From NCBI RefSeq assembly GCF_025998175.1, contig NZ_AP026695.1, forward strand, positions 932,760 to 964,759: DNA of 32,000 bases, in the 5' to 3' direction. The notes below the pieces were generated by a model. That model searched no databases. It saw nothing but the letters and a program-made list of their open reading frames with translations, and was not told the DNA's origin. This document shows, in pieces, positions 28,500 through 32,000 of the stretch. Source of the DNA: Nitrosopumilus zosterae (GTDB lineage: Archaea; Thermoproteota; Nitrososphaeria; Nitrososphaerales; Nitrosopumilaceae). Each line of letters starts with the position of its first letter. The first letter of the stretch is position 1. Both the position numbers and the translations under genes were made by a program.

Positions 28500-28573
28500 G
28501 CCTCCCTAGCTCAGCGTGGTAGAGCATCCGGCTGTTAACCGGATGGTCAACAGTTCAAGTCTGTTGGGAGGCG
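28500..28573 (+). tRNA. tRNA-Asn (anticodon GTT)
   Basis: Hand-folded cloverleaf of 74 nt. Acceptor GCCTCCC/GGGAGGC, D stem GCTC/GAGC, anticodon stem TCCGG/CCGGA with loop CT-GTT-AA, T stem AACAG/CTGTT with loop TTCAAGT, discriminator G. No encoded CCA. Confidence 0.95.
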
Positions 28574-28643
28574 CCTCATATTTTTAAACTTGAGATCTGA
28601 AATATTGTGTTTCATGTCTTTGATAACACCATAGAAAAACAAC

Positions 28644-28671
28644 ATATTTCTAAATTCGAATTTAGAAATAT
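28644..28671. promoter_or_regulatory. 28-bp perfect palindrome ATATTTCTAAATTCGAATTTAGAAATAT (motif copy 1)
   Basis: Exact self-reverse-complement. Lies 71 nt after the tRNA and 89 nt before the zinc-ribbon gene. Confidence 0.8.
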
Positions 28672-29282: not shown

Positions 29283-29310
29283 ATGTTTCTAAACTCGAAA
29301 TTAGAAATAT
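29283..29310. promoter_or_regulatory. Palindromic motif copy 2 (ATGTTTCTAAACTCGAAATTAGAAATAT)
   Basis: 24 of 28 positions identical to copy 1. Lies 37 nt after the preceding stop and 65 nt before the ATG at 29375. Confidence 0.75.
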
Positions 29311-29374: not shown

Positions 29375-29824
29375 ATGAGTGCATCCAGGTTACGCGATAA
29401 TGTCGAAAGATGGTTGATACATGAAGGACTGTCTTTTGAAGAAATAAAGAGTGCAGAAAATTCTTTCCAAATTTTAGCAAAGCACGCAGGTCAAGCAGAC
29501 ATTCCTGTTGAAATATTTGAACCAAAAGGCCAGCCAGGAATTCTGGTAATTGGAGCCAAAGTTGTAATGAAAAACAACCAGATTGCACGTTATTTGGGAT
29601 TTAATGCACAAGAAAAAGAGAACTTTGAAAAAAAAGTGACAGATTTTTGCCATTCAATTCAGGCTATTAATAAAATCATTACAGAAGATGGCAAACAAAA
29701 AATCGGAGTTTATGTTGTTCTAGACGATAAAGAAAACATCAACCAACAGACAGTTTTTGATGCAATAGACAGTGTATCAGAAAAACATGAAAAGACGTCG
29801 AGATTTTTGTTGAAAACATTTTAA
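29375..29824 (+). CDS. Hypothetical cytoplasmic protein (149 aa); weak recollection of a YbjN/DUF2299-like archaeal family
   Basis: The track ORF starts at TTG 29279, but that extension covers the palindromic motif. The ATG at 29375 (MSASRLRDNVERW...) has an ATCATATAG TATA-like box about 27 nt upstream. Confidence 0.55.
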   Translation: MSASRLRDNVERWLIHEGLSFEEIKSAENSFQILAKHAGQADIPVEIFEPKGQPGILVIGAKVVMKNNQIARYLGFNAQEKENFEKKVTDFCHSIQAINKIITEDGKQKIGVYVVLDDKENINQQTVFDAIDSVSEKHEKTSRFLLKTF

Positions 29825-29885
29825 AAAAATAGATGATTTATCAGTTCTACGCGGGTCTTATATCTAAAATTCACCAATATACGAT

Positions 29886-30035
29886 ATGAAAACAACAATT
29901 TTTCCAGAAAAAAATACAAAAAGACAGAGTTCAAAAGGAAATTTTTTAGAAAACCAGATTTTGAAATTCAAGGCTTCAAAGAATAAAGTATTCATTTTGA
30001 CAGCAATTGCAACAATAATGGTGGTTGTAAAATGA
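29886..30035 (+). CDS. Micro-ORF A (49 aa), C-terminal hydrophobic helix
   Basis: MKTTIFPEKNTKRQSSKGNFLENQILKFKASKNKVFILTAIATIMVVVK. CTTATATC lies about 25 nt upstream of the ATG. The stop overlaps the next start (ATGA). Confidence 0.4.
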   Translation: MKTTIFPEKNTKRQSSKGNFLENQILKFKASKNKVFILTAIATIMVVVK

Positions 30036-30154
30036 GTATTTTCAACATATTATTCAAACACACCGCAAAGAATTATGAGATCAATGTCAGCATCAACGTC
30101 AATAGACTCAGACTAGAAAATGCAACATCAAGATTGGAGGTTATTCAAAATTGA
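30032..30154 (+). CDS. Micro-ORF B (40 aa)
   Basis: MSIFNILFKHTAKNYEINVSINVNRLRLENATSRLEVIQN. ATGA overlap upstream and TTGA overlap downstream. Confidence 0.35.
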   Translation: MSIFNILFKHTAKNYEINVSINVNRLRLENATSRLEVIQN

Positions 30155-30219
30155 GCATATTAAAAATCATAGGAGAAATTCTAGAAGCATATGAAAAAAC
30201 AGAAGGTCAGCCACCATGA
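30151..30219 (+). CDS. Micro-ORF C (22 aa, TTG start)
   Basis: (M)SILKIIGEILEAYEKTEGQPP. Bridges ORFs B and D through 4-nt overlaps. Confidence 0.25.
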   Translation: MSILKIIGEILEAYEKTEGQPP

Positions 30220-30308
30220 GTAATTTTTTCAAAGTAATCGGGATTGCATTAGCCATACATTTCATTGTGAAAACAGTTCAAAAAGAATTGAAACAATTTG
30301 AAGTGTAG
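30216..30308 (+). CDS. Micro-ORF D (30 aa), hydrophobic N-terminal half
   Basis: MSNFFKVIGIALAIHFIVKTVQKELKQFEV. ATGA overlap with ORF C. Followed by a GGGGG-ATAAA-CCCCC(C) hairpin. Confidence 0.35.
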   Translation: MSNFFKVIGIALAIHFIVKTVQKELKQFEV

Positions 30309-30581
30309 ATGGACGCATCTCTTTTGGGGGATAAACCCCCCTATCACACATAAAATGTGTGTACAAAATGCATACACACCATAAAATCAAATTTTGAACA
30401 AGAATGAGAAAAATAGAATTACAGTTGATGAATCAGCAATTAATAACGCATTTGTATCCACAGATAATCTTTGATGAGTTTAGAGAATTATCATAATTCT
30501 TTTTTTCAAATATTTGATTGAGCAACACAGATTTCTAAAAATAGTCTAAAATAACAGAATTTATCAAAATCAAGCCTAGGC

Positions 30582-30661
30582 GTTAAACCCCCCTTGAAAA
30601 ACGGTGCATTTAGTCACAAGATGATTTTTTCAAAATTACTAGTTTTAAGGGGGGGTTTAAC
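30582..30661. repeat. 19-bp inverted repeat GTTAAACCCCCCTTGAAAA / TTTTAAGGGGGGGTTTAAC separated by 42 bp
   Basis: Arms at 30582-30600 and 30643-30661. 18 of 19 positions are complementary, ignoring one extra G in the G7 tract. Flanked by GCCTAGG and GCCTGG. Confidence 0.85.
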
Positions 30662-30970
30662 ACTCGTGCCTGGATATGAGATGCAATCATCAAACCACCA
30701 AGCTCTCCCATCTAATCATACCCCAAGTTTTATTGTCGTGCGTAAAAGCTAAACCCTCTAAATTTTGATCAAAAAAGCATCCAAATCAGGCAATCATGAC
30801 CAAGAATTCAAGTAATTACACATTCAAAAACCATGAATATTCATTAAATCTCAAGACGATAAATGTGCGATTTTAACAAAAATTTGGCTGAAAAAGAGGG
30901 GGGATGCAGGATATGTTTTTGCCATTATTGATGCGTTTCAACTATATAACAAAATAATCAGAGTTATTTC

Positions 30971-31456
30971 ATGGCAGGAATGGGCGTAATTATTGTGATC
31001 GGCGCCATCATAGCTTCAATGGTTGTTGCAAATTACATGTATATACAATATACAACAAATTACATCGAGGCAGTTGCAGGAAAGCCAATCATGGTAGGTC
31101 CGGTGGAATACGCCATAACATTTGAAGGAACTCATGAAGGAAGTAAAGAAATGATGCCAGAAAATACATTTGTAAAAATTGGAATTACAGCCAAAAACAC
31201 CAGTGATGAAAAAACAATCCTTTCAGGAGGACAATTTTACATTGTTGATGAAAAAGATCAAAAACATGAGGCAGTATTCGGAGAGTTTTCTTCTAAAGAC
31301 CTATTCCTAGAATCATTAGAGCCAAACAAATCGATTGAGAGAACAACGCAGTTTGATATTCCATTTGATGAAGAAAAAAAATACAAAATAATTATTCGGC
31401 CACAAAAAGATCAATCAACAGTTGATACAGCTGTTGTTTGCATAAGAAATTGTTGA
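30971..31456 (+). CDS. Membrane-anchored extracytoplasmic protein, tentatively DUF4352-like beta-sandwich
   Basis: N-terminal TM helix. Pattern FVKIGITAKNTSDEKTILSGGQFYIVDEKDQKHE resembles recalled DUF4352 domains. ACTATATAAC box about 25 nt upstream of the ATG. Confidence 0.55.
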   Translation: MAGMGVIIVIGAIIASMVVANYMYIQYTTNYIEAVAGKPIMVGPVEYAITFEGTHEGSKEMMPENTFVKIGITAKNTSDEKTILSGGQFYIVDEKDQKHEAVFGEFSSKDLFLESLEPNKSIERTTQFDIPFDEEKKYKIIIRPQKDQSTVDTAVVCIRNC

Positions 31457-31548: not shown

Positions 31549-31932
31549 ATGGCAATATCCAAAGCCAAAAGAGCAGAAGCAGCTAAAAAAGCAGCAAGAA
31601 CTCGAAAGAGAAATGCAGCTAAAGCAGCCGCAGAAGCACTAAAAGCAGCCGCAGCTCGTAAGAGAAAGGCAGCAGCAACTCGAAGGAAGAACGCTGGCAA
31701 GGCAGCTCCAAAGAGAAAGGCAGCAGCAAAACGCAGAGCCGCTCCAAAGAGAAAGGCAGCGCCTAAGAGAAGAACTGCAGCTAAAAAAGCAGCTCCAAAG
31801 AGAAAGGCAGCAGCAAAACGCAGAGCCGCTCCAAAGAGACGTACTGCAGCTAAAAAAGCAGCTCCAAAGAGAAAGGCAGCAGCAAAACGCAGAGCCGCTC
31901 CAAAGAGAAAGGCAGCTAAACGTCGACGTTAA
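31549..31932 (+). CDS. Highly basic Ala/Lys/Arg/Pro-repeat protein (histone H1 / AlgP-tail-like)
   Basis: 127 aa made almost entirely of A, K, R and P, with repeats AAPKRKAAAKRRAAPKRRTAAKK. Much more GC-rich than its surroundings. Confidence 0.65.
   Translation: MAISKAKRAEAAKKAARTRKRNAAKAAAEALKAAAARKRKAAATRRKNAGKAAPKRKAAAKRRAAPKRKAAPKRRTAAKKAAPKRKAAAKRRAAPKRRTAAKKAAPKRKAAAKRRAAPKRKAAKRRR
31702..31920 (+). repeat. Imperfect tandem DNA repeats (units of 87 and 69 bp plus a partial third) inside the AKRP-rich CDS
   Basis: GCAGCTCCAAAGAGAAAGGCAGCAGCAAAACGCAGAGCCGCTCCAAAGAGA recurs at 31702, 31789 and 31858. The first unit carries an 18-bp insertion. Confidence 0.85.
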
Positions 31933-31977
31933 GCTGTCTATACTATCTTTTTTCTTATTTTACATATTGGATTTAGT

Positions 31978-32000
31978 ATATTTCTAAACTCGAATTTAGA
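31978..32000. promoter_or_regulatory. Palindromic motif copy 3 (ATATTTCTAAACTCGAATTTAGA...), truncated by the window end
   Basis: 22 of the 23 visible positions are identical to copy 1. Lies 46 nt after the AKRP gene stop. Confidence 0.7.

Follow-up and report, generated by a model that had tools for sequence, protein, structure and literature searches.

The chromosome of the ammonia-oxidizing archaeon Nitrosopumilus zosterae carries, between its DUF2299 and DUF4352 genes, a block of four overlapping micro-genes (A, B, C, and D) that we conclude with high confidence, from comparative sequence evidence, to be a real and selected operon with conserved coupling signals. The block lies in a 32,000-nucleotide (nt) stretch of the chromosome (contig NZ_AP026695.1, positions 932,760 to 964,759; hereafter the window, whose own coordinates are used throughout), which at this locus is identical to contig BGKI01000001.1 of assembly GCA_003175215.1. 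Homologous A-B-C-D cassettes are also present in metagenome contigs that resemble mobile genetic elements (MGEs). We put at roughly one in two the chance that the four genes form a mobile accessory operon for a heteromeric complex of microproteins, probably involved in conflict between a mobile element and its host.

The block was first noticed in a reading of the letters of the window made without database searches (the sequence-only reading), which described four open reading frames (ORFs) tiling 423 nt. A mechanical ORF list and the sequence reproduce their coordinates exactly, together with the three 4-nt overlaps that join them (ATGA at 30032-35, TTGA at 30151-54, and ATGA at 30216-19). 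The same reading took the whole chain to be absent from annotation. This is true of C and D, which are uncalled in public records, but A and B are already genes in GCA_003175215.1 and bear the name “hypothetical protein” in NCBI records.

Coding selection and signals for expression

The DUF2299 protein, used to scan species-representative genomes, yielded 80 Nitrosopumilaceae loci. Searches with tblastn and hidden Markov model (HMM) profiles placed A, B, C, and D immediately downstream of DUF2299 in 18 of 81 species-level Nitrosopumilaceae loci, always as a set and in one order. The set analyzed here comprises 15 sequences, the window and 14 other species, and in every one of them all four ORFs are intact, with zero in-frame stops. 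Nor are the ABCD loci assembly duplicates of one sequence, for they are 55–90% identical to each other. Lesions occur in three lineages: one has stops in A and D (L036), another a truncated C and a shortened B (L012), and in the third A is fused to B and D is lost (L046).

The pattern of substitution is that of protein-coding genes under constraint. In codon alignments, the pooled ratio of nonsynonymous to synonymous polymorphism (pN/pS) is 0.47 for A, 0.28 for B, 0.29 for C, and 0.19, the lowest, for D, with pS between 0.39 and 0.67; synonymous sites are near saturation among the species compared. When the same alignments are read in shifted frames, pN/pS rises to 0.8–1.6 (0.8–1.2 for A and about 1.0 for C) and 17–78 stop codons appear. 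In B through D, diversity at the third codon position is two to six times that at positions 1 and 2. The comparison with the closest relative, GCA_025698845.1, is consistent with this: the ABCD block is 99.76% identical, with a single, synonymous substitution in 423 nt, while identity falls to 95.2%, with six gaps, in the intergenic DNA downstream, and L6 and DUF4352 are 97.3–97.7% identical. The idea that the four frames and the three junctions form a conserved unit under purifying selection, for which the sequence-only reading had named tblastn and synteny as the check, is thus upheld across the 15 sequences.

The overlaps had also been read as the classic sign of translational coupling. The bare chain is weak evidence for this, because the NTGA motif makes about three-quarters of TGA stops potential starts. 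In 1000 simulated 32-kb sequences, drawn from a third-order Markov model with the composition of the window, chains of at least four NTGA-linked ORFs, each of at least 20 amino acids (aa) and together spanning at least 420 nt, turned up in 232 (about 23%), and the real window also holds several spurious chains of three ORFs. The pattern as such is therefore not statistically unusual, but the junctions are conserved in 15 of 15 sequences. The A/B junction is ATGA and the B/C junction AATTGA, with a TTG start, in all 15. At the C/D junction, ATGA is found in two (the window and L064) and an 8-nt overlap, ATGAATAA or ATGAGTAA, in the other 13, one of them with GTG. The NTGA overlap, with its -4 spacing, is how coupled genes in archaea, N. 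maritimus included, are most often arranged (reviewed in PMC12548453).

The region upstream of A contains a well-conserved promoter. The 60 nt before the gene are highly conserved, and a TATA-like box stands at the same spacing from the ATG in 15 of 15 sequences, reading CTTATATC or CTTTTATC in 12 and a T-rich variant in 3. Just before the box, the segment ATGATTTATCAGTTCTACGCGGGT is nearly invariant in the 15 ABCD sequences, and it also precedes an unrelated gene of about 50 aa in other genomes. Leaderless archaeal mRNAs have a TATA box some 25 nt ahead of the start codon. The box before A is at this distance, and a like spacing is seen before the genes that start at 29375, 30971, and 8411, as the sequence-only reading had said. 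No Shine–Dalgarno (SD) motif precedes A: the mean free energy (dG) of the duplex with the anti-SD sequence is -0.9 kcal/mol there, compared to a background of -2.8 +/- 2.7 kcal/mol over all positions in the block. (For these energies, we took the 16S anti-SD tail to be the conserved sequence of general knowledge.) Both the spacing and the lack of an SD motif support the earlier suggestion of a leaderless transcript.

The three downstream genes have SD-like motifs, each embedded in the 3' end of the gene before it. GGTGGTG or ATGGTG is conserved 8–12 nt before the start of B, GGGAGG or GAGGTGAT before C in 15 of 15 sequences, and GAGGT before D in most species. The strongest of these motifs serves the weak TTG start, which agrees with a leaderless start at the first cistron and SD-assisted re-initiation at the other three. 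After the last stop, the predicted G/C-stem hairpin is indeed present, following a T-run (GGGGGATAAACCCCCC at 30326-30341), and a comparable hairpin is found after D in most species and likewise after the alternative 50-aa gene. With moderate confidence, these signals suggest a single leaderless message translated by sequential re-initiation, whose products would form a heteromeric complex with B dimerizing.

Chromosomal and mobile-element-like settings

The sequence-only reading saw a viral or plasmid flavor in the packed micro-genes, and the second setting of the cassette supports it. An exhaustive HMMER profile search of 1.84 billion representative proteins found only a handful of B-family relatives (a match to a 1112-aa repeat protein was judged spurious). 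Among them, two divergent relatives of B (P0059 and P0060) sit on MGE-like metagenome contigs, where the genes are unidirectional, tightly overlapping, and nearly all without family assignment. A metagenome scan with the B-like alignment then gave eight MGE-like loci and six ordinary chromosomal ones. ABCD with overlapping junctions is found in L085 and L090–L097, and a partial cassette that lacks A in L088 and L089. In these contigs, an A-like gene ending in K-x-S-x-K-K-V-L-x-L-S-x-I-A-x-x-M-G-M-x-R-P precedes B, a C-like peptide carries the EILET motif, and a D-like peptide follows B and C. Profiles built from the chromosomal copies alone recognize the MGE copies of B at E values of 1e-16 to 1e-26 and those of D at 1e-5 to 4e-8. 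B also occurs as a natural tandem fusion of 83 aa (863-1138 in L088 and L089; 593-844 in L094), which suggests that it acts as a dimer.

The cassette is the only gene content that the MGE-like contigs and the chromosomal loci have in common. The contigs have a Nitrosopumilus-like GC content (31.5–33.8%, compared to 32.9% in the window). Neighbors of the cassette in them encode a DUF7220/phrog_4276 protein, a surface protein that exceeds 1742 aa and contains Ig-like and BNR domains, and a single-stranded DNA-binding (SSB)-like protein with an oligonucleotide-binding (OB) fold and a zinc finger (PF21473, above cut-off). A search for homologues of the SSB-like protein returned only seven clusters, all on short contigs. 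Two related contigs, L104 and L105, keep the genes for the SSB and for proteins of 135, 149, and 216 aa in order and have no cassette. Since it is absent from these as well as from many chromosomal loci, the cassette is facultative in both settings. No tRNA genes were found on the MGE-like contigs and no terminal repeats on the one of 9.96 kb; as no hallmark gene was recognized either, we infer from architecture that the carrier is virus- or plasmid-like. As a separate observation, the 216-aa protein (3304-3954 in L091, with homologues in L088, L104, and L105) starts MILVCYDFSD...QSVYYL, and by eye this N-terminus recalls a Cas2-like ferredoxin strand motif, for which Pfam and PHROG gave no support.

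On the chromosome, the cassette occupies a hypervariable hotspot. The interval between DUF2299 and DUF4352 ranges from 319 to 4686 nt. Its contents, as seen at 29825-30970 of the window and in loci L005–L084, are small cassettes, each with a promoter, a micro-ORF, and a G/C hairpin, along with minus-strand genes whose proteins have predicted signal peptides. In 17 loci, the same conserved promoter precedes the unrelated gene of about 50 aa (MKTKTSTKPKELTISSAELSRFGMGVMNRAIKVVNTAKKGKITIKLERE), which belongs to no family. This gene and ABCD (18 loci) are mutually exclusive, and both are missing from 46 loci. The two kinds of locus share DNA homology over the promoter and the initial few codons (MKT...), and then not again until a conserved element that precedes the next small gene. 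The idea that the 50-aa gene is related to A or B by divergence was rejected, the hhalign probability being 0.1%. In a rough neighbor-joining tree of four flanking proteins, made without support values, the ABCD genomes fall in one clade with losses interspersed, and the 50-aa gene dominates the sister clade. The simplest reading of these sequences would be the replacement of cassettes behind a fixed promoter, and the chromosomal A is possibly chimeric at its 5' end.

Several features of the hotspot deserve mention in their own right. The element at which homology between ABCD and 50-aa loci resumes (30336-30385) reads CCCCCC-TTATTT-ACA-AAATGTGTGT-CAAA-TGCACAC-...GTAAAATCA and contains a GTGTGTA/TACACAC hairpin; it probably serves a conserved 51-aa gene (...LQINESxINExFxSTNNxFDxFRxFTS...SENFLK) as promoter or 5' region. 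The window holds a frameshifted, truncated remnant of this gene at 30394-30496. It is intact in many related loci, downstream of ABCD and of the 50-aa gene alike, and in the close relative L002 it has a 1-nt deletion and is still truncated. Further along, at 30575-30760, an element of about 190 nt is near-invariant across Nitrosopumilaceae. Its long hairpin, CTAGGCGTTAAACCCCCC...GGGGGGGTTTAACACTCGTGCCTGG, has a minimum free energy of -32.9 kcal/mol (z-score -4.1), and the element is a candidate noncoding RNA or recombination site within the hotspot; covariation is uninformative here because the sequence barely varies. Rfam, at gathering and at permissive thresholds, found nothing in 29800-31000.

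The peptides and their possible role

The N-terminus of A is basic, rich in Thr and Lys, and variable; its C-terminal 30 residues are strongly conserved, with the consensus F-I/L-E-x-Q-x-L-K-x-K-A-S-K-N-K followed by a 14-residue hydrophobic run and K. Among 5.8 billion clustered proteins, its family has 45 clusters and that of B has 12, and all named members are Nitrosopumilus “hypothetical proteins”; the B family is tiny and confined to Nitrosopumilus save for the MGE copies. AlphaFold2 predicts a beta-hairpin for B (strands 4-12 and 15-23) and an all-beta fold for the B-B tandem. C would be an acidic amphipathic helix (L-N-I-L-K-M-I-D-E-I-L-E-T-Y-E...), and D a hydrophobic helix with a histidine in its middle, followed by the basic tail VKTVQKELKQ.

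Comparison with known families yields little. Searched singly and as a concatenate against Pfam, NCBIfam, PHROG, and PADLOC, the four peptides gave only sub-threshold chance matches, with one exception: B matches CAP_N-CM over 12 residues at 20.6 bits, against a cut-off of 19 bits, and this was judged spurious. C and D have only weak, sub-significant matches among the PHROGs, and profiles of A, B, and the 50-aa gene find no relatives among PDB sequences. A Foldseek search of PDB with the B-B model gave nothing significant; the best hit, Hcp (E 0.02, TM-score 0.36), was treated as meaningless. Matches of D to LHC/pufA, sub-threshold at 14–15 bits, raised the idea of a histidine-ligand helix. 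It was dropped because the histidine, invariant in chromosomal D, becomes R or N in the MGE homologues.

In the explanation that we favor, transcription would start about 25 nt downstream of the TATA-like box, placing the 5' end of the mRNA at or beside the ATG of A. Ribosomes that finish A, B, and C would re-initiate at the overlapping ATG, TTG, and ATG, aided by the embedded SD-like motifs, and the four peptides would therefore be produced together. They may then assemble as one heteromeric complex, by analogy with other gene pairs that overlap by -4. Given its natural tandem form, B could be the dimerization unit, a beta-hairpin. A and D would contribute hydrophobic helices, either as a membrane anchor or as the core of an oligomer, and the acidic C may pair with their basic tails. 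The cassette as a whole would be a mobile accessory module resembling a phage “moron,” exchanged between a Nitrosopumilus virus or plasmid and the chromosome, and the chromosomal copy would have displaced the unrelated 50-aa gene behind the resident promoter. A role in element–host conflict (exclusion, immunity, or addiction), as opposed to core metabolism, is proposed with low confidence; it is favored because conflict is the usual fate of small accessory cassettes common to mobile elements and chromosomal hotspots, and the patchy distribution and repeated decay fit it.

Of course, several results weigh against this explanation. The sequence-only reading gave A and D one hydrophobic helix each. 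The hydrophobic runs are there, but their reading as membrane spans is borderline: the longest uncharged runs are 14 residues in A and 12 in D, and the best 19-residue Kyte-Doolittle mean is about 1.6, when a span by the criterion used calls for a hydrophobic segment of about 18–20 residues. As the runs are short and the middle of the D helix holds a polar residue (H, R, or N), a membrane location is only possible. The models of the monomers are of moderate to low confidence, with a pLDDT of 75 for B and of 61 for B-B. PADLOC-DB has no match to A–D at E <= 1, and Pfam, NCBIfam, and PADLOC hold no toxin or antitoxin family that matches them. The profile of A recognizes the MGE copies only marginally (E 6e-4 to 7e-3), and that of C not significantly, so that the likeness of C consists in its position and the EILET motif. 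The MGE-like contigs, all of them incomplete, show no recognized capsid, terminase, integrase, or conjugation hallmark; IMG/VR returned no loci from B profiles or MGE proteins, and tblastn of 18 concatenated MGE proteins against INPHARED gave no match. The most specific version of the proposal, a self-contained, horizontally mobile four-microprotein exclusion or immunity system of an unknown Nitrosopumilus virus or plasmid family that one host clade would have domesticated through in-frame capture at the resident promoter, displacing the 50-aa gene, is improbable as it stands.

One could also consider a toxin–antitoxin (TA) or addiction cassette, with A and/or D as membrane-active toxins, B and the acidic C as antidotes, and coupling setting their ratio. 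The patchy accessory distribution over MGE-like contigs and the chromosomal hotspot, the frequent decay, and the presence of small hydrophobic peptides in the size range of type I toxins all agree with it, as do the opposite charges of C and of the tails of A and D. It is nonetheless unlikely in view of the missing family matches, and four genes exceed the need of a TA pair. Constraint is about equal on all four peptides, and the damage in the lesion lineages is not limited to the putative toxin.

We are similarly doubtful of a housekeeping accessory, in which the peptides would act as small subunits of a resident protein or membrane complex, or regulate it, perhaps as partners of DUF2299, and the MGE copies would be secondary captures. 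Purifying selection is strong across the clade, and the chromosomal cassette is always directly downstream of DUF2299 on the same strand. However, about 63 of 81 Nitrosopumilaceae loci keep DUF2299 and DUF4352 without it, and it is interchangeable with the unrelated 50-aa gene. It also has its own predicted promoter and terminator, and in the MGE contigs its neighbors are other genes, with no DUF2299.

That the chain is a set of regulatory leader ORFs, whose translation controls downstream genes (the 51-aa gene or the conserved hairpin element) and whose peptides are irrelevant, has very little probability. The ORFs are short, lie on a probable leaderless message upstream of more small cassettes, and are followed by hairpins, but their amino acid sequences are conserved (pN/pS 0.19–0.47) and are kept in the MGE contigs despite different genes downstream, and a conserved element of its own stands upstream of the 51-aa gene, which is decayed in the window while ABCD is intact. 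Finally, a chance ORF chain in AT-rich DNA, which the frequency in random sequences and the spurious chains of the window might suggest, or one frameshifted pseudogene, is excluded by the intact frames at high pS, by a pN/pS that is well under 1 only when the proposed frames are read, and by the near-identity of the block in the close relative; the conserved junctions and SD-like motifs (the former, with the per-frame pN/pS, disposing of the pseudogene) and the second, divergent set of the same four genes in MGE contigs likewise speak against it.

The surrounding locus, related systems, and significance

Table 1. Features of the operon and its neighborhood (window coordinates; dG in kcal/mol)
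Feature	Position	Strand	Remarks
Ribosomal-protein operon	upstream end of the gene order		closes with S8, L6
95-aa gene (p95)	after the ribosomal-protein operon, before tRNA-Asn
tRNA-Asn	28500-28575
82-aa zinc-ribbon-like gene (zr82), then 75-aa membrane gene (tm75)	between tRNA-Asn and DUF2299
DUF2299 gene	29375-29824		directly upstream of the ABCD block
Conserved upstream promoter segment ATGATTTATCAGTTCTACGCGGGT	29833..29856	+	B recognition element (BRE)-like or factor-binding region (putative)
TATA-like box CTTATATC	29857..29864	+	centre ~25 nt before the ATG of A
Micro-gene A	29886-30035	+	49 aa, ATG start
SD-like GGTGGT for B	30020..30025	+	within the 3' end of A; mean dG -7.7
Micro-gene B	30032-30154	+	40 aa, ATG start, predicted beta-hairpin
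SD-like GGAGGT for C	30136..30141	+	within the 3' end of B; mean dG -10.4, strongest of the three
Micro-gene C	30151-30219	+	22 aa (23 aa in most species), TTG start
SD-like GAAGGT for D	30202..30207	+	within the 3' end of C; mean dG -7.4
Micro-gene D	30216-30308	+	30 aa (26-28 aa in most species), ATG start
Likely transcript end: T-run and G/C hairpin GGGGGATAAACCCCCC	30322..30341	+	hairpin -16.5 kcal/mol in context
~660 nt without long ORFs	between the ABCD block and DUF4352
DUF4352 gene	30971-31456

The order L6, p95, tRNA, zr82, tm75, DUF2299, DUF4352 is conserved family-wide in the Nitrosopumilaceae loci (Table 1). Integration beside tRNA-Asn was considered and rejected, because all of these loci conserve the genes that separate the tRNA from the block. 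Two 22-nt near-perfect palindromes, TTTCTAAAyTCGAAwTTAGAAA, lie at 28647-28668 and 29286-29307, one before the 82-aa zinc-ribbon gene and one before DUF2299; shuffled sequences predict none. Degenerate copies are found at 28577-28607 and 31971-32000. The palindromes are a candidate operator. Downstream of DUF4352, at 31549-31932, is a gene for a 127-aa protein made nearly entirely of Lys/Ala/Pro/Arg repeats (AAKRRAAPKRK units, with DNA repeats of 18–87 nt). It has histone-H1-like low complexity and no Pfam match, and it is kept in several related loci.

The cassette invites comparison with several known systems. Like the archaeal gene pairs that overlap by -4 (PMC12548453), the four genes are co-oriented and their stop/start overlaps (ATGA, TTGA, and ATGA) are conserved across species, and the expectation that such pairs encode subunits of one complex may by analogy extend to A–D. 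Unlike those pairs, ABCD comprises four cistrons, all of them for microproteins (22–49 aa), with a seemingly leaderless A, an SD-like motif at each re-initiation site, and coupling that is predicted. With the morons and superinfection-exclusion proteins of phages and other MGEs, it shares a self-contained make-up, optional presence within an element family (it is absent from L104 and L105), capture in a chromosomal hotspot, and small, partly hydrophobic products; it differs in having no sequence or profile similarity to known exclusion or defense proteins (PADLOC, PHROG) and in an unclassified host MGE.

The type I TA toxins, such as Hok, TisB, and Fst, resemble the cassette in their peptides of 26–49 aa with a single hydrophobic helix, their association with MGEs, and their patchiness. 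The differences are that ABCD has four protein genes, shorter hydrophobic runs (12–14 uncharged residues), and no family match. As for leaderless mRNAs, A is like them in its TATA-like spacing, shared by neighboring genes of the window, and in its lack of an SD motif, but the SD-like motifs downstream mean that the message would mix both modes of initiation. Leaderless initiation, NTGA coupling, and accessory cassettes are each already known. What is new is the four undescribed peptide families, two of them unannotated, and a four-cistron cassette made only of microproteins and common to an uncatalogued, Nitrosopumilus-associated element.

Few cells in the ocean are as abundant as marine ammonia-oxidizing archaea, and their small proteome and mobile elements are almost unknown. 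The locus yields two unannotated microproteins under selection, C (22–23 aa) and D (26–30 aa), and places two “hypothetical proteins,” A and B, in the same unit with them. As a natural example of a mixed-mode message, leaderless at its first cistron with three SD-assisted re-initiations, one of them at TTG, it could serve the study of coupling in archaea. It also connects a chromosomal hotspot to an uncatalogued, ORFan-rich element of Nitrosopumilus-like GC content. Should the cassette form no more than a small structural complex, it would still be of use as an example of gene replacement by whole cassettes at a fixed promoter. If it is an exclusion or addiction device, it would offer a route into the virus–host biology of a group with very few known defense systems, and the domesticated exclusion or immunity system set out above, if true, would be the first conflict system of ammonia-oxidizing archaea made wholly of peptides of at most 50 aa.

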